Assembly: GCA_044353855.1 (NCBI GenBank)
Contig: JBILBF010000001.1
Location: 642,233 to 706,232, forward strand
Length of the DNA: 64,000 bases
Direction of reading: 5' to 3'
Source of the DNA: Bacteroidia bacterium
GTDB lineage: Bacteria > Bacteroidota > Bacteroidia > UKL13-3
The position numbers and the translations under genes were made by a program. This document shows, one piece after another, positions 1,996 to 14,663 of the stretch (positions within the stretch are counted from its first letter, which is position 1; each line of letters opens with the position of its first letter). The notes below the pieces were generated by a model. The model worked only from the letters and a program-made list of their open reading frames with translations, made no database searches and was not told the DNA's origin.

Positions 1996-2564
1996 TGAAA
2001 AAAATACTACTGTTTGCATCGGGAAGTGGGAGCAATGCAGATAATATTTGCCATTATTTTAACAATAATGCCAATGTAAAAGTGGTCGCTTTGTGTTGCA
2101 ATAATCCCCAAGCAGGTGTGATTGCTAAAATGGAAAAATGGCAAGTACCCGTTCTGTTAACTAGCCGAGCACAATTAAATGATGCCAGTTATTTTTTACC
2201 GCTTATTCAACAATACAAACCAGATATTATTGTACTTGCAGGTTTTTTAGTATTGGTACCTCCTTATTTGGTCAAAGAGTTTCCCAATCGTATTATCAAT
2301 ATTCATCCAGCATTACTACCAAAATATGGAGGAAAAGGTATGTATGGACATTTTGTGCACGAAGCCGTTCTTGCTCAAAACGAAACCGAACATGGCATTA
2401 CAATTCATTTGGTAAATGAAAAATTTGATGATGGTGCACACTTGTTTCAACAGTCATTTGAAGTTACACCTCTGGATAACTTGGAATCATTATCGATGAA
2501 AATTTCACTGCTCGAAATGACTCATTACCCAAAAGTGATAGATGAGTATTTGGAGCATAATTAA
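1995..2564 (+). CDS. purN: phosphoribosylglycinamide formyltransferase
   Basis: GAR transformylase signature region IINIHPALLPKYGGKGMYGHFVHEAV and N-terminal ILLFASGSGSN; ~190 aa as typical. Confidence 0.9.
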   Translation: MKKILLFASGSGSNADNICHYFNNNANVKVVALCCNNPQAGVIAKMEKWQVPVLLTSRAQLNDASYFLPLIQQYKPDIIVLAGFLVLVPPYLVKEFPNRIINIHPALLPKYGGKGMYGHFVHEAVLAQNETEHGITIHLVNEKFDDGAHLFQQSFEVTPLDNLESLSMKISLLEMTHYPKVIDEYLEHN

Positions 2565-3058
2565 GTAGACTTAATTTTTTTCTCGATAAGTGAGGTTGAA
2601 AAACCCGGAATAAAATCGATGGTTTGTACGCTGCCACCTTTTGCTGTTACAATATCATAACCCACAATATTCTCAGCAGTATAGTCGCTACCTTTTACCA
2701 AAATATCAGGTTGCACCATATTAATAAGTTCATAGGGTGTTTGTTCCTCAAATAATATTACTGCATCTACAAACTCAAAAGAAGCTAAAATTAGCATACG
2801 CGAAAACTCATCTTGTATCGGGCGATGTGGTCCTTTTAGTTCACTTACCGAGGCATCGGTATTAACGCCAATAATCAACCTGTCGCCTAGGTCGCGAGCT
2901 TTGGCTAAATAATCTACATGCCCACGGTGAATAAGGTCGAATACACCATTGGTAAATACTATTTTTTCACCACCGTCATTCCACTGTACAATTTTTTGCA
3001 TCAACATATCTGGAGTTGTACATATTTTATTTTGAATGAATTCGGTATGAGTTTGCAT
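2561..3058 (-). CDS. cytidylyltransferase-like nucleotidyltransferase (RfaE domain II / D-beta-D-heptose 1-phosphate adenylyltransferase-like)
   Basis: FTNGVFDLIHRGHVDYLAKARDLGDRLIIGVNTD matches the HxGH nucleotidyltransferase motif of the RfaE domain II / glycerol-3-P cytidylyltransferase family; 165 aa. Confidence 0.7.
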   Translation of the reverse strand: MQTHTEFIQNKICTTPDMLMQKIVQWNDGGEKIVFTNGVFDLIHRGHVDYLAKARDLGDRLIIGVNTDASVSELKGPHRPIQDEFSRMLILASFEFVDAVILFEEQTPYELINMVQPDILVKGSDYTAENIVGYDIVTAKGGSVQTIDFIPGFSTSLIEKKIKST

Positions 3059-3139
3059 ATATATCAGATATTATAATGTGCAAAATACGGATAAGTTTTT
3101 AAGATAATGAAGGATACCATTTAGAAGGGAATAATTAAT

Positions 3140-3466
3140 ATCGAATTTCGAAATAAAAGAGGAAATATGAATGAAAAAGAAAGACTAAATAAGAGAATGA
3201 AGATTATTGGATTGAAGAAATAATTAATTTCGAAATTCGAGATTAAATATTCATAACCCCCAAAGAAAATATTTTCTATTGAATGATCAGATTTAGAAAA
3301 GGGATTGTTTTCTAAATTTTAAAAATTAAATATTATTTCGAAATTCGAGATTAAATATTCATAACCCCAAAAGAAAATATTTTCTATTGAATTATCAGAC
3401 TTAGAAAAAGGGATTTTATTCTAAGTTTAAAAATTAAATATTCGAATTCGACATTCGAATTTTGAG
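3140..3466. repeat. AT-rich intergenic tandem repeat: two full 108-bp units (3227-3334, 3335-3442) plus partial flanking copies, rich in TTCGAAATTCGA / CGAATTCG palindromic cores
   Basis: Direct reading: atttcgaaattcgagattaaatattcataacccc(c)aaagaaaatattttctattgaat... repeats with period 108; each unit holds a 8-10 bp hairpin (3291-3317 and 3399-3426). Confidence 0.85.
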
Positions 3467-3469
3467 TAT

Positions 3470-4456
3470 CTATTTTTTCTGTTGTTGAGCTAACACCAAT
3501 AACGAACAAACGCCACCAATAGCTAAGAGTAAAATCATTTGTACACCATGCACAATGGTTGCGTATGCAATGCCATCTGCTTGCGCTACACCAAATAACA
3601 ATAAGGATTGCATCACAGCAAAATGGTAAGTTCCTGCACCTGCTCCTGGAGCCGGAATAATCATACCTATAGAGCCAATTACAAATACGGTTAGGCAATC
3701 CATAAAACTAAGGTGTGCAGTTGCTTGCATGGCAAATAAGCAGAAATACATCATCAATACATAACAAATCCAAATACCAATAGATAATAATAAAAATAAT
3801 AATGGATTGTTGATTTTACGGATACTCAAAAGGCCCTCGGCAAAGCCTTTACATACAACTACTATTTTTTGAAGTAAGGGATGAGCAATAATTTTTTTAC
3901 GCATTATCAATAGCAATGTTCCGAGTAGTAAAAAAAATCCTATTACTACATATTTCAGGGTGTGATCAGCCGAAGAGGGATTACTATTAATTATATTATT
4001 CAGAACAAAATTACGAAGCAATTCAAACTGTATCAAAAAAACCACAAATAATAATAGTAGTAAAATAACAACATCAAATACACGTTCGGTAACAACGGTG
4101 CCCAGTGATTTATTAACAGGTATATCATTTGTTTTAAGCAAAGAAGCGCAGCGAGAAACTTCACCCGCTCTGGGTATAATATAGTTCATCATGTACCCAA
4201 TCATTACTGCATAAAAGCTGTTTTTTGCCGAAACGGTGTACCCCAAAGCTTTGTATAACATATTAGCCCTATATGCTCGTATATAATGGCTAATAACAGA
4301 AACCGACATGCCGGCTGCAATCCACCAATAATTGGTATGCTTAAATTTGAGCATCAAATCAGCCCAATCGGTTCCTTTAAAAACAATATATAAAAACAGA
4401 ACACCAATCAGTCCAATTATTGTGTATTGAATAACCGATTTTAGCTTTGCGCTCAA
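3470..4456 (-). CDS. integral membrane protein, lysylphosphatidylglycerol-synthase-TM-like / flippase-like (UPF0104) family
   Basis: 328 aa with ~8 predicted TM helices; N-terminal region resembles LPG_synthase_TM family proteins; 4-bp overlap with panD suggests an operon. Confidence 0.55.
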
Positions 4457-11195: not shown

Positions 11196-11290
11196 GAATG
11201 TAGTAAAAGTGCATAAACGCAAAAAGCCATTCGGTCCCGATAGCTATCGGGAGGCGTTTTCTTTTTTTGCTCCCTTCATTGATAAAAGAT
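11196..11290. repeat. degenerate remnant of the GIY-YIG/tRNA-Asn junction (first ~8 codons of a GIY-YIG gene + hairpin interrupted by the 18-bp palindrome + tRNA 3'-end-like TTTGCTCCC)
   Basis: gtaaaagtgcataaacgcaaaaagccattcgg at 11203-11234 matches 13452-13483 (start of the intact GIY-YIG gene and its upstream hairpin); palindrome TCCCGATAGCTATCGGGA at 11235-11252; tttgctccc at 11269-11277. Confidence 0.6.
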
Positions 11291-11380: not shown

Positions 11381-11644
11381 TTATAGCTTATGTTTACTTT
11401 TCTTTTCCTGCATCTTAATAAACATTTCAAACTCAATTATCAAGTCGCTCAACTTAAATTCAAATGCATCTGCAAGATTTTTAACCCAATAAAGTGTAGG
11501 TGTAATTAAACCACGTTCAAGTCGAGATATATTTTGAAAATTATTGCTCATTAAATCGGCTAAATCAGATTGGGACATGCCTTTTTTAGACCTTTTATAT
11601 CTAACAAAATCACCGAACAAAATGTTGTAGCCTCTTTTTTCCAT
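11381..11644 (-). CDS. XRE-family helix-turn-helix transcriptional regulator (87 aa)
   Basis: KKGMSQSDLADLMSNNFQNISRLERGLITPTLYWVKNLADAF is a classic Cro/C1-type HTH. Confidence 0.7.
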   Translation of the reverse strand: MEKRGYNILFGDFVRYKRSKKGMSQSDLADLMSNNFQNISRLERGLITPTLYWVKNLADAFEFKLSDLIIEFEMFIKMQEKKSKHKL

Positions 11645-11754
11645 TTAAGCCAAACAATTTGTGATAATAGACAACTTGTATACTAACCATATGTGGTTAT
11701 TTTTGTGATGAACATTACATTGATGTTCATCAACCAATTTAAAATAGTATTAAA

Positions 11755-12822
11755 ATGAAAAAAGTAATTTACATAACAATTGCAATTCTAGGATTTGCAA
11801 ATTTTACAATGGCACAAGTGCCAAGCTATGTGCCATCAGATAGTTTAAAAGGATGGTGGGGATTTAATGGTAATGCGAATGACCAAAGCGGTAATGGAAA
11901 TAATGGAACCGTGAATGGTGCTACATTAACAAGTGATAGGTTTGGAAATTCTAATAATTCTTATGGATTCAACGGTTCAAATAATTTTATTTCTTATAAT
12001 AACATTGCAAACCTCCCTATTAAGAACTCTTCGCGAACAATTTCATTATGGTTTCTTTTAACTCCTACTTCAGGATATAACGATGGATATTCACTAATTT
12101 CTTATGGAAGTAAGAATGTTAATGGTGGGTTGAATGATATTTTTATAAAAGCAGATCCTGCTTTGATCGAATTTAATGCACATAGTTGTTATACCGATAA
12201 TAATCCTGGAACAATTAATTCATTTTCAAGCACTTGGCATCATCTAATAGTAAAATACGATAGTGTTAGCATTGATAGTATAGATATTCGTTTTGATAAT
12301 TTAAAAATTGCATCAACTAATCATAACATAAATCAATTAAAAAGACTATTTACCGATAGTTCAGAAATGTTAATTGGTAAATCTGTAATTTCATATGCTA
12401 CTGAATTTTATTTTAATGGTAAAATTGACGACATCGGTATTTGGAATCGTGCTTTAACTGAACAAGAAATCACAAATCTATATAATGGTAATATTTGTTT
12501 TCAGAATATTAGCGTAACTGATACATTAGTTATAAATGTTAACCGTACTGGTTATAATCCTGTAACTTATAGTAACACTTTAAAGGTGTATCCAAACCCT
12601 ACAAAAGACCGCATCACTATTGATAATGGTGACATATCAAAAATGTCAGGATATTCAATAAAAATATTCAATTCATTAGGTCAACAAAAATTCCAATCAG
12701 CCATTAACCAACAACAATTTACAATTGATATTACACAATGGGGTGGCAATGGTTTATACTTCTTAAATTTACTTGATGCATCAGGAAATATTATTGATGT
12801 AAGAAAGATTTTATTGAATTAA
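11755..12822 (+). CDS. secreted LamG/concanavalin-A-like lectin domain protein with T9SS (Por) C-terminal sorting domain
   Basis: Signal peptide; LamG-like core (WHHLIVKYD...GKIDDIGIWNRALTEQEI); C-terminal KVYPNPTKDRITID...GLYFLNLLDASGNIIDVRKILLN is a T9SS CTD. Confidence 0.75.
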   Translation: MKKVIYITIAILGFANFTMAQVPSYVPSDSLKGWWGFNGNANDQSGNGNNGTVNGATLTSDRFGNSNNSYGFNGSNNFISYNNIANLPIKNSSRTISLWFLLTPTSGYNDGYSLISYGSKNVNGGLNDIFIKADPALIEFNAHSCYTDNNPGTINSFSSTWHHLIVKYDSVSIDSIDIRFDNLKIASTNHNINQLKRLFTDSSEMLIGKSVISYATEFYFNGKIDDIGIWNRALTEQEITNLYNGNICFQNISVTDTLVINVNRTGYNPVTYSNTLKVYPNPTKDRITIDNGDISKMSGYSIKIFNSLGQQKFQSAINQQQFTIDITQWGGNGLYFLNLLDASGNIIDVRKILLN

Positions 12823-12875
12823 TAAGCGTCTAATTTTTAATCATTAAATCAAAATAAACTAGCATTTTATTTGAA

Positions 12876-12906
12876 AAAGGAGAGTCAAATGGCTCTCCTT
12901 TTTTTG
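12876..12906 (+). terminator. rho-independent terminator of the LamG/T9SS gene
   Basis: aggagag tcaaatgg ctctcct stem-loop followed by TTTTTTT. Confidence 0.7.
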
Positions 12907-12993
12907 TTAATGTTAAAATATGCAACCACTTCTGGGGCTTGCTGTAAAAAGAAAAAGGTGACAGAAACGTTGCCTTGTTTAGTTGTGCTCCCT

Positions 12994-13011
12994 TCCCGAT
13001 AGAAATCGGGA
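12994..13011. repeat. imperfect copy of the 18-bp palindrome (TCCCGATAGAAATCGGGA)
   Basis: Differs from the perfect palindrome at 2 central positions; lies in the repeat-rich stretch preceded by GTGCTCCC. Confidence 0.6.
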
Positions 13012-13097
13012 CTGGGCTCCCCGATTGTGCAGCTCTATGCTCGTTCCTCACACAGCCGCAGCATCGGGATAAACTTCTCGCCCTCAAAATTTATTCA

Positions 13098-13130
13098 AAA
13101 AAAAAGACCGCAGACTGCGGCCTTTTTTTA
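13098..13130. terminator. bidirectional hairpin terminator (A-run / GACCGCAGACTGCGGCC / T-run); on the minus strand it directly follows the pseudo-tRNA-Asn 3' end
   Basis: aaaaaaaaagaccgcagactgcggccttttttt; position is consistent with being the original terminator of the split ancestral tRNA-Asn. Confidence 0.6.
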
Positions 13131-13135
13131 ATTTG

Positions 13136-13187
13136 CTCCCTGACCTGCCCCGATAGCTATCGGGGGAACCAGGGACCTATTGATTAA
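13136..13187 (-). pseudogene. tRNA-Asn pseudo-fragment: 3' half (anticodon loop to 3' end) with the 18-bp palindrome replacing the T-loop
   Basis: aatttgctccctgacctg + ccccgatagctatcgggg + aaccagggacct + attgattaa aligns with the intact tRNA-Asn at 13502-13548 except for the palindrome insertion and 1 mismatch. Confidence 0.75.
13148..13165. repeat. 18-bp perfect palindrome CCCCGATAGCTATCGGGG (variant of TCCCGATAGCTATCGGGA)
   Basis: Self-complementary; replaces the T-loop of the 3' pseudo-half. Confidence 0.8.
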
Positions 13188-13467
13188 GAGTTATAATTTT
13201 GTGAACCAGTTCAGGATACTGAATCAATGATTCAATAAACCGTTTACTCTTCATTCGTTTAATATGCATTTCAACTTTCAAGGCATGACTTCTATTTTCG
13301 CAAGGGATAATAAGCACTATTTCCCATGGAATTCCTGCTTTTGTCGAATTTGTGTTGAGTTCAGAACTGTTGTGGTACAAAAGACGTGCGTCAACATCCG
13401 TTGTTTCACCAGTATAATATCGATTGCGTTTAGTAGAATATAAAATATAGCAAAAGTGCATAAACAA
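13177..13467 (-). CDS. GIY-YIG nuclease family protein (COG2827/UPF0213-like, 96 aa)
   Basis: FCYILYS...RYYTGETTDVDARLLYHN...IPWEIVLIIPCE matches the GIY / YIG / Arg / Glu core of small GIY-YIG (URI) proteins; last three codons and the stop are encoded by the tRNA-derived fragment; start is immediately 3' of a hairpin+T-run. Confidence 0.8.
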   Translation of the reverse strand: MFMHFCYILYSTKRNRYYTGETTDVDARLLYHNSSELNTNSTKAGIPWEIVLIIPCENRSHALKVEMHIKRMKSKRFIESLIQYPELVHKIITLNQ

Positions 13468-13507
13468 AAAAAGCCATTCGGACAGAATGGCTTTTGCATT
13501 TAATTTG

Positions 13508-13581
13508 CTCCCTGACCTGGACTCGAACCAGGGACCTAGTGATTAACAGTCACTCGCTCTAACCAGCTGAGCTATCAAGGA
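13508..13581 (-). tRNA. tRNA-Asn (anticodon GUU), intact
   Basis: Reverse complement TCCTTGATAGCTCAGCTGGTTAGAGCGAGTGACTGTTAATCACTAGGTCCCTGGTTCGAGTCCAGGTCAGGGAG: 7-bp acceptor stem, D-arm, anticodon stem AGTGA/TCACT with loop CTGTTAA, T-arm CTGGTTCGAGTCCAG; 74 nt. Confidence 0.9.
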
Positions 13582-13612
13582 ATATTTTCCGATTTCAAGT
13601 TGTCAAAGCTTG

Positions 13613-13663
13613 TTGTTACTTGCTCTAACCTCCCGATAGCTATCGGGAGAGCTATCAAGGAAT
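13613..13663 (-). pseudogene. tRNA-Asn pseudo-fragment: 5' half (positions ~1-32) with the 18-bp palindrome replacing the D-loop; retains the native 5' flank
   Basis: gttacttgctctaacc + tcccgatagctatcggga + gagctatcaaggaat(tttcc) aligns with the intact tRNA 5' half at 13548-13590, including the upstream flank ttttcc. Confidence 0.75.
13631..13648. repeat. 18-bp perfect palindrome TCCCGATAGCTATCGGGA
   Basis: Self-complementary; identical to the copy at 11235-11252. Confidence 0.8.
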
Positions 13664-13745
13664 TTTCCTTTAAGGGGATGCAATGATAGGATTTGAAATT
13701 TAAATACGCAATATTTGCCACGAAAAAATTTAAAATAAAATTAGC

Positions 13746-14663
13746 ATGAGTTTATTAGTCGTTGGTAGCGTGGCATTTGACGCCATAGAAACACCTTTTG
13801 GAAAAACAGATAAAATTGTAGGAGGAGCAGCTTCGTACATTTCATTAGCAACTTCTTACTTTACAAATACCACCAAATTGGTTGCTGTAGTAGGGGATGA
13901 TTTTCCGCAATCTTTTGTTGAAACCCTAAACAAAAGAGGTGTAAACACGGAAGGATTGCAAGTAAAACAAGGAGAGAAATCATTTTTTTGGAGTGGTAAA
14001 TACCACACAGATATGAATTCGCGTGATACACTGGTTACCGAATTAAATGTTTTAGGCGATTTTGATCCTATCATTCCTGTATCCTACCAAGATTGTGAAT
14101 ACTTGATGTTGGGAAATTTAACTCCTGCCGTTCAACAAACAGTAATCAACCGGTTAACCAAACGCCCAAAACTAATTGTAATGGATACCATGAATTTTTG
14201 GATGGAAATAGCCATGGATGATTTGAAAAAAACCATTGCGATGGTGGATGTTTTAACAATTAATGATGAAGAAGCGCGTCAACTTTCTGGGGAATATTCA
14301 TTGGTAAAAGCTGCAGCCAAAATTATGTCAATGGGTCCAGCCTATTTAATTATTAAAAAAGGAGAAAACGGAGCATTGTTGTTTCATGGTAAAGAAGTGT
14401 TTTTTGCACCAGCATTACCATTAGAAGAAGTATTTGATCCAACAGGAGCAGGCGATACATTCGCTGGTGGTTTTATTGGATACCTTGCCAAAACGGATGA
14501 TATATCATTTGAAAACATGAAAAATGCCATCATTTATGGATCAGCAATGGCTTCGTTTTGTGTTGAGAAATTTGGTACCGAGCGAATCCTAGATTTGAAA
14601 GCGGATGAATTGAAAGCTCGAATAGCACAATTCCAGCAACTCGTGAAGTTTACAATTGACTAA
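13746..14663 (+). CDS. PfkB-family carbohydrate/nucleoside kinase
   Basis: C-terminal DPTGAGDTFAGGFIGYLA is the ribokinase/PfkB anion-hole motif; 305 aa. Confidence 0.8.
   Translation: MSLLVVGSVAFDAIETPFGKTDKIVGGAASYISLATSYFTNTTKLVAVVGDDFPQSFVETLNKRGVNTEGLQVKQGEKSFFWSGKYHTDMNSRDTLVTELNVLGDFDPIIPVSYQDCEYLMLGNLTPAVQQTVINRLTKRPKLIVMDTMNFWMEIAMDDLKKTIAMVDVLTINDEEARQLSGEYSLVKAAAKIMSMGPAYLIIKKGENGALLFHGKEVFFAPALPLEEVFDPTGAGDTFAGGFIGYLAKTDDISFENMKNAIIYGSAMASFCVEKFGTERILDLKADELKARIAQFQQLVKFTID

Follow-up and report, generated by a model that had tools for sequence, protein, structure and literature searches.

A tRNA-Asn locus with an Slx1-like GIY-YIG nuclease gene, tRNA fragments and a dispersed palindrome in a Bacteroidia bacterium

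SegB, a free-standing GIY-YIG homing endonuclease encoded in the tRNA gene cluster of phages T4 and T6, has in T4 a 27-bp site that contains a conserved motif of the tRNA T arm (PMC2330249). Across phages, segB is statistically linked to tRNAs and drives the tandem amplification of tRNA and segB together, by way of microhomology of the tRNA 5′ end with the segB 3′ end (PMC13096335). Here we describe a chromosomal locus that invites comparison with this phage system. It lies in a 64,000-nucleotide stretch of DNA from a Bacteroidia bacterium (contig JBILBF010000001.1, positions 642,233 to 706,232; the whole stretch is called the window below), in which an intact tRNA-Asn gene stands between two partial copies of itself, an open reading frame (ORF) for a 94-amino-acid (aa) GIY-YIG protein follows the intact gene, and each partial copy is interrupted in a loop by the same short palindrome. 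With little better than even confidence, we favor the view that this tRNA-Asn gene has been colonized by mini-cassettes that are found across the Bacteroidota, carry no integrase, are built around a 94-aa Slx1-like GIY-YIG nuclease and move by way of tRNA repeats.

The likeness to SegB lies in a GIY-YIG gene that sits among tRNAs, in tandem units of tRNA part plus ORF, and in the T loop, which is what the palindrome replaces in most 3′ fragments of the family to which the window's locus belongs. In contrast to SegB, which is phage-borne and I-TevI-like, the family protein is chromosomal, 94 aa long and made of the catalytic domain only, and it is nearer to Slx1 and UPF0213. Likewise, neither a healing tRNA segment nor a conserved palindrome has been reported for SegB systems.

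Elements that integrate into tRNA genes (prophages, integrative and conjugative elements, genomic islands) insert at the anticodon or T-loop region and carry the 3′ part of the tRNA in their attP, which restores the gene, and the displaced 3′ fragment becomes the direct repeat at the far end. The cassettes discussed here resemble them in this placement, in having a tRNA 3′-part direct repeat at both ends with the tRNA restored, and in a precise, repeat-bounded presence or absence; they differ in having no integrase, in a size of about 0.4 kb, in a mirror-image form that restores the 5′ part and brings a promoter, in their arrays, and in the palindrome. Group I introns with homing endonucleases are a further kind of tRNA occupant, found in the anticodon loops of tRNAs in cyanobacteria and Patescibacteria (PMC13011429). 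The junction in the anticodon loop is shared with these introns, as is the possibility of a GIY-YIG ORF, but in the window a terminator lies between the tRNA and the ORF, duplication takes the place of splicing, and an Rfam E-value scan of 12500-14000 found no ribozyme and returned only tRNA above noise, which ruled out a group I intron or another structured RNA.

Within the GIY-YIG superfamily, the Slx1 cluster has a minimal domain and no conserved C-terminal Asn (PMC1564403), and Slx1 itself is described as a structure-specific nuclease for branched DNA. The best profile and fold matches of the family protein are to Slx1 and UPF0213, and it too has a minimal domain with no conserved C-terminal Asn, whereas neither tRNA linkage nor mobility is described for UPF0213 proteins in the literature searched. 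A last comparison is with repetitive extragenic palindromes (REPs), the REP doublets that form hairpins (REPINs) and REP-associated tyrosine transposases (RAYTs), which likewise pair a short dispersed palindrome with a nuclease gene flanked by copies of it and are inherited over the long term and in part vertically. However, RAYTs are HUH/Y1 (IS200/IS605-like) transposases, usually single-copy and not linked to tRNAs, whereas the enzyme of this family is a GIY-YIG hydrolase; furthermore, the repeat of the family is only 16-18 bp long and also occurs in frame within genes, more like the Rickettsia palindromic elements.

Anatomy of the locus and its predicted nuclease

All parts of the locus read on the minus strand, and the tRNA position numbers used below are positions in the intact tRNA-Asn.

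13661-13615, minus strand: tRNA-Asn 5′ fragment (positions 1-13, palindrome, positions 18-33)
13631-13648, no strand assigned: palindrome copy 1, TCCCGATAGCTATCGGGA, in the 5′ fragment, in place of the D-loop AGCT
13582-13614, minus strand: spacer and inner leader, 33 nucleotides (nt), before the intact tRNA; a scar of about 10 nt, then ...gaaatcggaaaatat
13507-13581, minus strand: intact tRNA-Asn(GTT), the working copy (ARAGORN; Rfam RF00005)
13469-13495, minus strand: inner (cassette-type) terminator hairpin, AAAAGCCATTCTGTCCGAATGGCTTTT, with T-run, between the tRNA and the ORF
13177-13461, minus strand: GIY-YIG nuclease ORF, 94 aa, Slx1/UPF0213-like (Pfam PF01541; 96 aa if the TTG at 13467 is used)
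13134-13191, minus strand: tRNA-Asn 3′ fragment (positions 32-56, palindrome, positions 62-76)
13148-13165, no strand assigned: palindrome copy 2, CCCCGATAGCTATCGGGG, in the 3′ fragment, in place of part of the T loop
13097-13122, minus strand: outer terminator, GGCCGCAGTCTGCGGTC, with T-run, after the 3′ fragment (read from the sequence)
12986-13068, minus strand: older remnant (split palindrome, degenerate palindrome, tRNA 3′ end)
11277 to about 11110, minus strand: oldest remnant (tRNA 3′ end, terminator with palindrome, start of a GIY-YIG ORF)

The initial annotation of this DNA had placed four objects here on the minus strand, namely a 5′ half of a tRNA-Asn, an intact tRNA-Asn, a GIY-YIG ORF and a 3′ half, and ARAGORN, Rfam, Pfam and a repeat finder recovered all four where they had been placed. 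The intact tRNA-Asn scores 67.5 bits (E 3.6e-14) with the Rfam tRNA model. Each flanking fragment was returned by the repeat finder in two pieces: in the 5′ fragment, positions 1-13 (13661-13649) give, with flank, a match of 18 nt at 94% identity, and positions 18-33 (13630-13615) one of 16 nt at 88%; in the 3′ fragment, positions 32-56 (13191-13166) give 26 nt at 92%, and positions 62-76 (13147-13134), with 7 nt of trailer, 21 nt at 100%. The two had been presented as reciprocal halves of one gene, and on alignment they do meet at positions 32/33, but they are not clean halves in that the palindrome, which is absent from the earlier description, interrupts each of them. Because the fragments overlap by about 2 nt there, the break falls at the 5′ edge of the anticodon loop; the loop was thus correctly identified as the place of the break, and only the exact point moves, by 1-3 nt.

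A native leader, adjoining the gene for a PfkB protein, precedes the 5′ fragment, and a hairpin with a T-run follows the 3′ fragment (13122-13097), as had been claimed; this outer terminator differs in sequence from the inner one and has a plus-strand mirror at 13108-13120. The inner leader and inner terminator are unlike these outer, native ones, in agreement with the proposal that a working tRNA has been preserved. Related loci, labeled L001 onward (L006 is Bacteroidetes bacterium UKL13-3, CP012155, the closest complete genome, and L104-L183 are metagenome contigs), conserve the inner leader gaaatcggaaaatat and carry the inner type of terminator 3′ of the tRNA (L001, L005, L006, L009, L087), and this terminator type occurs a second time in the window, in the remnant at 11221-11260. 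The structure of the 5′ fragment is likewise shared with relatives (L001, L003, L006, L009, L086-L089, L098). The end of the ORF runs into tRNA sequence: its final stretch, ACT CTT AAT CAA TAG, belongs to the anticodon arm of the 3′ fragment, so that four codons and the TAG stop are tRNA-derived, a borrowing that had been recognized from the start.

The ORF scores 44.2 bits with PF01541, above the curated cut-off of 22.6, at E 2.4e-11 and over positions 1-74 of the 78 in the profile, which upholds its assignment to GIY-YIG; its first-reported length of 96 aa is the less likely one, since homologues have 94 aa and the ATG at 13461 is therefore the likely start. All of 117 family ORFs retain the catalytic residues Y5 and Y16 (the tyrosines of GIY and YIG), R26, H30 and E64, the last of which binds the metal. 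Purifying selection on the ORF is strong: the ratio of nonsynonymous to synonymous substitution rates (dN/dS) is 0.05-0.16 in pairs where dS can be estimated, and the most divergent pairs are saturated at synonymous sites (proportion of synonymous differences, pS, 0.74-0.83 in family ORFs).

Run as a profile against the sequences of the PDB, the family finds the UPF0213 proteins BH0048 and EF2693 and then Slx1 (1zg2 at 3.8e-7, 1ywl at 4.3e-6, SLX1 at 8.8e-5). An AlphaFold model with a mean predicted local distance difference test (pLDDT) score of 88.5 has a beta-sheet and four helices over 96 residues, and Foldseek with this model returns 1zg2 and the Slx1 nuclease domains (4xlg/6seh/7cq2) at probability 1.0, with I-TevI and UvrC at 0.3-0.4. 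The protein is minimal. It consists of the catalytic domain only, has no Asn in columns that are at least 90% conserved among the 117 ORFs, and has within its 94 aa no DNA-binding module of the homing type (NUMOD or helix-turn-helix, as in I-TevI and SegB). The NCBIfam, PADLOC and PHROG models gave no match to this GIY-YIG subfamily. On these profile matches and the predicted fold, we assign the protein to the Slx1/UPF0213 (COG2827) branch of the superfamily and not to that of UvrC and I-TevI; we call it a nuclease on this predictive footing, and the target discussed below is likewise a candidate.

Two remnants lie farther along the same strand. In the older one, the palindrome is split at its center by a 37-nt insert (CCCGAT at 13068-13063, ATCGGGG at 13025-13019), and a degenerate palindrome, TCCCGATTTCTATCGGGA, at 13011-12994 (a two-mismatch match at 12995-13010) and a tRNA 3′ end, AGGGAGCA, at 12993-12986 come after it. 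The oldest remnant opens with a tRNA 3′ end, GAAGGGAGCA, at 11277-11268; its cassette-type terminator holds a palindrome (11252-11235) in the loop and leads to the frameshifted start of a GIY-YIG ORF, from an ATG at 11214, and 49 nt of the remnant are 82% identical to 13444-13492 (repeat finder).

The stretch between these tRNA-3′-end remnants, 11381-12822, holds two ordinary-looking genes, one for a LamG/Por_Secre_tail protein and one for an HTH_3 regulator; L086 has two small ORFs and a gene for an AraC regulator in a like position (2039-3650), as if cargo had come by the same route. Mechanically called ORFs of 48-85 aa run across the fragments and palindromes of the window (12830-13087, 12975-13187, 13575-13721) and include strings that resemble PIAIG or PDSYRG. 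Most likely these ORFs are spurious, although annotation could mistake them for genes, and at the corresponding place in L099 a gene of 73 aa has been called. Rfam matches to Thr and Trp leaders at 13097-13180 proved to be merely the palindrome and the terminator.

A tRNA-linked family and its two arrangements

The linkage of this nuclease gene to tRNA genes is a property of a family. A word-indexed protein search gave 14 relatives, and an exhaustive profile search gave 1,537 protein clusters (50% identity) at E ≤ 1e-10. A pattern scan of one genome per GTDB species, with tblastn confirmation, yielded at least 427 loci, of which the best 80 were analyzed. All of these 80 are from Bacteroidota (Chitinophagales, Flavobacteriales, Sphingobacteriales, Cytophagales, Saprospiraceae, Bacteroidales). 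Across them the density of tRNA genes is 0.60/kb within 500 nt of GIY-YIG matches as against 0.0036/kb elsewhere, a 168-fold enrichment; a tRNA (Asn, Phe, Met, Arg, Leu and others) is adjacent in 62 of the 80 loci, and 66 of the 68 tRNAs near an ORF are co-oriented with it. On its other side the ORF is bordered by a second, incomplete copy of this tRNA, with its start or end at the anticodon loop; of 109 non-redundant family copies, 78 have a palindrome-bearing 3′ fragment behind the ORF. The genes found at other tRNAs are thus relatives of the one in the window and share its architecture, which points to mobility on the reasoning of the initial annotation, where unrelated GIY-YIG genes at other tRNAs were held to speak against it.

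Two arrangements recur. In type A (Asn, Phe, Met, Leu), 35-60 nt separate the end of the tRNA from the ORF, which is followed by a 3′ fragment beginning at about the anticodon loop and then by a terminator; the stop codon is often the TAA of the anticodon loop. In type B (Arg-CCT and some Asn, Met, Thr and Cys), a promoter-like leader and a 5′ fragment that extends to the anticodon precede the ORF at a distance of about 60 nt, the stop of the ORF overlaps a TAnnTTTG box, and the intact tRNA comes 4-22 nt further on. Most family loci have a tRNA fragment on one side only. A neighbor-joining tree clusters the proteins by tRNA type, with types A and B of the same tRNA as neighbors. At loci with a single unit, the inner control element differs from the outer, native one, whether this is the terminator of type A (window, L015, L046, L059, L080) or the TAnnTTTG leader of type B (L062, L069). 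The simplest reading of these sequence differences is that the healing part of the tRNA would come with the cassette, as would the terminator or promoter beside it, and that the resident gene would be the source of the displaced fragment.

The units also form arrays. More than one GIY-YIG match, in tandem, occurs in about 30 of the 90 sequence sources that have any, and in UKL13-3 (L006, 3560-7760) the tRNA-Asn is preceded by at least 11 tandem 80-nt units, each with leader, palindrome-bearing 5′ fragment and 10 nt, and followed by 8 tandem 410-nt units, each with terminator, ORF and palindrome-bearing 3′ fragment. Where no intact tRNA is present (L034, L063, L077), the locus opens with an isolated tRNA 3′ half, from the anticodon loop onward, which indicates that the boundary of the unit is fixed at this loop. 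In 14 of the 80 loci the ORF is within 200 nt of the start of the locus (L007, L012, L017, L023, L027, L048, L065, L072 and L085 are among the loci of this kind), mostly with a contig end at the tRNA or just upstream of the ORF; the repeats of the cassettes break short-read assemblies at tRNA genes.

Close relatives of the window's own locus, found through the neighboring PfkB gene (nine contig look-ups, PfkB 86-100% identical), show how its parts can be combined. The five-part arrangement of the window is present in L001-L004, L009, L087 and L098. In L095 (PfkB 88% identical) there is a tRNA-Asn with the cassette terminator and a decaying ORF, and the 5′ fragment is missing. In L086 (PfkB 96%) the 5′ fragment and the tRNA are followed by a different terminator, the AraC gene and two ORFs, and only 1.8 kb on by a tRNA-end remnant, the cassette terminator, a GIY-YIG ORF with an in-frame stop and a palindrome-bearing fragment. 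The ORF of L088 is truncated. Furthermore, in L089 (1788-2702) and L091 (913-1827) a 197-aa GIY_YIG_2 (PF20815) gene is nested in a second, different small GIY-YIG ORF directly after the tRNA-Asn.

These relatives bear on the origin first proposed for the locus, a single composite insert of about 420 bp (spacer, replacement tRNA, terminator and ORF) that entered the anticodon loop in one homing event. The abutment of the fragments at tRNA positions 32/33, the difference in leader and terminator between the outer and inner sides, and the recurrence of the same five-part layout in seven relatives would all follow from such an event, but the modules of the supposed insert are held apart in L095, where tRNA and ORF occur without the 5′ fragment, in L086, where the ORF unit is 1.8 kb off, and in UKL13-3, where at least 11 of the 5′ units contrast with 8 ORF units; in addition, most loci have a fragment on one side only, and the 5′ fragment of the window is built like ORF-bearing type B cassettes, its palindrome having the same D-loop position as in the type B tRNA-Asn cassettes L022, L039 and L060. 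We therefore regard a single insertion with a complete replacement tRNA as improbable, and the earlier picture as correct in describing the outcome but not as one event. The separation of the modules and the type B-like 5′ fragment indicate instead two mirror-image modules, and judging by sequence the window is better read as an ORF-less type B relic upstream, a live type A unit downstream and two older relics. The outer fragments would then resemble reciprocal halves because both types of unit join the tRNA at the anticodon loop, and the intact tRNA between them may be wholly cassette-derived.

The search for empty sites that had been suggested for this locus gave a divided answer, in that relatives offer no clean empty tRNA-Asn site, a point taken up below, while a clean filled and empty pair exists at the neighboring tRNA-Met, 1 kb from the tRNA-Asn. 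There, in contigs with identical PfkB protein, a block of 369 bp is present or absent. In L089 (1120) and L091 the tRNA-Met is followed by its native terminator; in L087 (2843-3211) and L090 it is followed by another terminator, a Met-clade GIY-YIG ORF, AGAGCATCTGACTC, a T, CCCGATAGCTATCGGGG and CAGGTGGGCCCAC, and then by the native terminator, so that the block is bounded by CAGGTGGGCCCAC, a 13-nt direct repeat of the tRNA 3′ end. The tRNA-Met ORF of L087 is an open frame with ACG in place of ATG (hidden Markov model scan). Pseudogenized or truncated copies are found in the window (11214), L086 and L088.

Consistent with the initial annotation of an element lacking integrase and transposase, the gene tables list neither near the element, and in about 10 related loci (covering L001, L002, L005, L087-L091, L095, L098 and L099) the genes that were called within 3.5-6 kb and marked by Pfam include none. 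This is difficult to reconcile with the idea that the repeats are att-site duplications from integrase-mediated islands at the tRNA, with the GIY-YIG gene as a passenger. Direct repeats of a tRNA 3′ end flanking inserted DNA are a classic sign of tRNA-integrating elements, and the genes between tRNA-end remnants in the window and in L086 are cargo-like; but besides the lack of a recombinase among the called genes of 10 related loci, the units measure only 370-410 bp, their content is always the same ORF family, type B duplicates the 5′ part of the tRNA and its promoter, and the palindrome is left unexplained. We consider islands a very improbable source.

A palindrome in tRNA loops and beyond

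The palindrome is 18 bp long, (T/C)CCCGATAGCTATCGGG(A/G), and replaces a tRNA loop in each fragment of the window. Its core, CCCGATAGCTATCGGG, has 4 copies in the 64 kb, one of them with 2 mismatches, and all lie between 11236 and 13647, where 0.06 copies would be expected by chance. In the family, CCGA(N2-8)TCGG palindromes are found within 160 nt of 97 of the 109 non-redundant ORF copies (downstream only in 53, upstream only in 19, on both sides in 25), and 115 palindromes lie within 600 nt of an ORF, compared with about 12 outside arrays in the remainder of the 761 kb. The center varies between invariant arms, CCCGA/TCGGG (in full, CCCGA(N4-6)TCGGG), and the variant tracks the protein clade: GATAGCTATC is the form seen with Asn, Arg and Met, GAAGCTTC the one seen with Phe and Leu. 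Loci that have diverged to saturation at the synonymous sites of the ORF still share an identical palindrome, which is therefore under selection. Its place in the fragment varies by lineage, always within a loop region (the D loop, the D stem on its 3′ side, the variable loop, the T loop), and it is also present in the loops of terminators (window 11252-11235; L087/L089).

A second type of palindrome, CCTGCCTGCCGGCAGGCAGG, is found in the D loop of fragments in L013 and L084; these copies and the split copy of the window (13068-13019) are hairpins inserted in hairpins. Two simple accounts of the palindrome were rejected. That it always marks the center of a local hairpin is contradicted by metagenome copies, of which 4 of 86 have flank pairing of at least 6 bp (5%, with 0.6% in controls). 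A derivation from a tRNA acceptor or D stem might be suggested by a similarity to TCCTTGATAG, but we treat this similarity as coincidence, since the palindrome accompanies tRNAs with unrelated acceptor stems.

The palindrome reaches well beyond the cassettes. An exact-match scan of metagenome contigs found at least 120 stretches with CCCCGATAGCTATCGGGG, and of 88 palindrome occurrences in 80 metagenome loci only 9 have a GIY-YIG ORF within 600 nt, and 12 have a tRNA no more than 900 nt away; this reciprocal scan ruled out a palindrome that is private to the cassette. The remaining copies stand alone in unrelated contexts, either intergenic or in frame within long ORFs, where they read as PIAIG or PDSYRG (examples are L161 1556-1573, L146 2031-2048, L182 4814-4831 and L152 1856-1873). 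In Chitinophagaceae, Mrp/NBP35 proteins at 85-93% identity contain either ...YFIPAE-LPDN... or ...YFIPAAPIAIGVPEN..., and in the genes for the latter form the palindrome takes the place of the loop in a native CCGGC...GCCGG hairpin. The palindrome is a dispersed, polymorphic repeat in its own right, and the GIY-YIG ORF is the sole gene consistently seen beside it. One further copy, L175 3792-3809, lies directly 5′ of AGGAAAGTCCGGGCAACACAGGGC. The latter resembles the conserved start of a bacterial RNase P RNA; if it is one, the palindrome would occupy the place of the P3 hairpin.

It is informative to examine these dispersed copies in light of an alternative in which a REP/RAYT-like system is primary: the palindrome would be the mobile entity, the GIY-YIG protein its nuclease and the tRNA linkage secondary, with tRNA-derived hairpins as favored landing sites and tRNA promoters and terminators serving the expression of the ORF. 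The many unrelated contexts of the palindrome, including its metagenome stretches and in-frame copies, its presence or absence in Mrp/NBP35, its nesting in hairpin loops and its single consistent companion gene agree with this alternative, which we hold as a tentative possibility, clearly short of even. The difficulties are that the ORF is near so few of the metagenome occurrences (9 of 88), that only about 5% of the solo copies are in an obvious hairpin, that a hydrolytic GIY-YIG nuclease alone cannot cut and rejoin as HUH transposases do, and that the healing tRNA segment and the anticodon-loop junction are left unexplained.

Proposed mechanism and meaning

If the cassettes do move by way of tRNA repeats, as we favor, their anatomy suggests how. 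A type A cassette would consist of the 3′ portion of a tRNA from the anticodon loop on, its own terminator and the ORF; it would join the resident gene at the anticodon loop, so that the resident 5′ portion and the 3′ portion of the cassette make up a working tRNA, and the displaced resident 3′ portion would stay behind the ORF and give it a stop codon and terminator. A type B cassette would be the mirror image, with the ORF, a promoter-bearing leader and the 5′ portion of the tRNA, and would leave the displaced 5′ fragment upstream. In one of its loop regions, every displaced fragment bears CCCGA(N4-6)TCGGG as an inverted repeat. Recombination between the direct repeats that stem from the tRNA would bring about gain, loss and amplification of units, and the viable zone for crossover would be the stretch of 13-25 nt of tRNA distal to the palindrome, an exchange elsewhere leaving no intact tRNA. 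This stretch coincides with the repeat that bounds the tRNA-Met block.

The initiating break is probably made by the nuclease, by analogy with T4 SegB at T-arm sequences of tRNAs. Because the palindrome is also a dispersed repeat, it is most likely the cognate DNA element of this enzyme, either as a recognition or processing site or as a deposited footprint that destroys the target in the spare copy, and nuclease and palindrome may form a partnership like that of RAYTs and REPs.

Several observations weigh against this proposal. Many loci have identical inner and outer terminators, which fits arrays with deleted ORFs, local duplication or homogenization as well as it fits import. The polymorphism at the tRNA-Met gives no direction, and since its ORF has ACG in place of ATG, precise loss is at least as likely as gain. 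No clean empty tRNA-Asn site was found beside PfkB in the relatives, where the ORF is instead intact, decayed, truncated, displaced or arrayed, and the order PfkB, tRNA-Asn, GIY-YIG persists at PfkB identities of 86-100% and in other orders of the phylum (L010, L011, L047), so that the history there could be largely vertical. With 9 of 88 metagenome copies near a GIY-YIG ORF, the presence of the palindrome in the fragments could be secondary. There is little sign of a vector: phages gave only two weak matches, in Listeria phages, and no PHROG match, and PLSDB plasmids and IMG/VR gave no relatives. Likewise, the intact tRNA keeps normal D and T arms, and if these are the target the resident copy stays cleavable; purifying selection is strong, with dS > 1 at a fixed locus, unlike what is seen in an idle homing gene; and the 94-aa protein is without the type of DNA-binding domain that known homing endonucleases use. 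The proposal also does not account for the dispersal of an 18-bp hairpin by a hydrolytic nuclease.

As an alternative, the ORF could be a vertically inherited host gene tied to tRNA loci, for instance one that acts on conflicts between replication and transcription or on R-loops where tRNA genes are highly transcribed, and the fragments, palindromes and arrays could be by-products of its activity and of local repair. Such a gene would account for the synteny with PfkB and tRNA-Asn across wide divergence, for the low dN/dS with saturated dS, for protein clades that follow the tRNA type and for the absence from phages, plasmids and viral contigs, and the protein resembles Slx1, a structure-specific repair nuclease. 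It would not account for presence and absence between near-identical strains, frequent pseudogenes and truncated copies, highly variable tandem copy number, a cassette with its own terminator or promoter for the tRNA, bare units away from intact tRNAs, or tRNAs whose occupancy differs by lineage. We judge a host gene of this kind unlikely.

Returning to cassettes that colonize tRNA genes, a stronger form of this proposal deserves mention. Nuclease and palindrome could represent a previously unrecognized class of mobile DNA, in which a structure-specific Slx1-like mini-nuclease and its cognate 16-18-bp hairpin propagate as a pair without integrase, transposase or reverse transcriptase. The hairpin would be set in the loops of DNA hairpins (the D, variable and T loops of tRNA genes, terminators, coding genes), and the nuclease gene in tRNA genes that are split at the anticodon loop and healed by its own tRNA segment. 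Targets would be chosen by DNA structure and not by a long sequence, for example by a cloverleaf or hairpin that tRNA genes extrude under heavy transcription. We hesitate to press this idea, which we rate as speculative and a good deal less than even.

Searches of the openly accessible full-text literature, a scope that does not extend to subscription-only papers, turned up no account of Slx1-like GIY-YIG genes linked to tRNAs, of DNA cleavage by this subfamily, of the palindrome sequence or of the PIAIG and PDSYRG peptides. This family of tRNA-gene cassettes is widespread and apparently undescribed. It can be seen as a variation on known systems, with a real chance that it is a new class. A practical consequence concerns genome annotation, since metagenome assemblies are broken at the occupied tRNA genes (the 14 of 80 loci above) and the pseudo-tRNAs and spurious ORFs that the elements create will be mis-called by annotation pipelines. 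An unreported 18-bp palindromic repeat, in frame even in housekeeping proteins, would become tied to a candidate enzyme, and a branch of the UPF0213/Slx1-like proteins that has so far been without a function would gain one that can be tested. The phage SegB phenomenon, that is, GIY-YIG nucleases targeted to tRNAs and their tandem amplification, would be extended to bacterial chromosomes. If our proposal is true, a selfish cassette of about 0.4 kb, with no integrase, would inhabit tRNA genes across a major bacterial phylum and leave these essential genes working.

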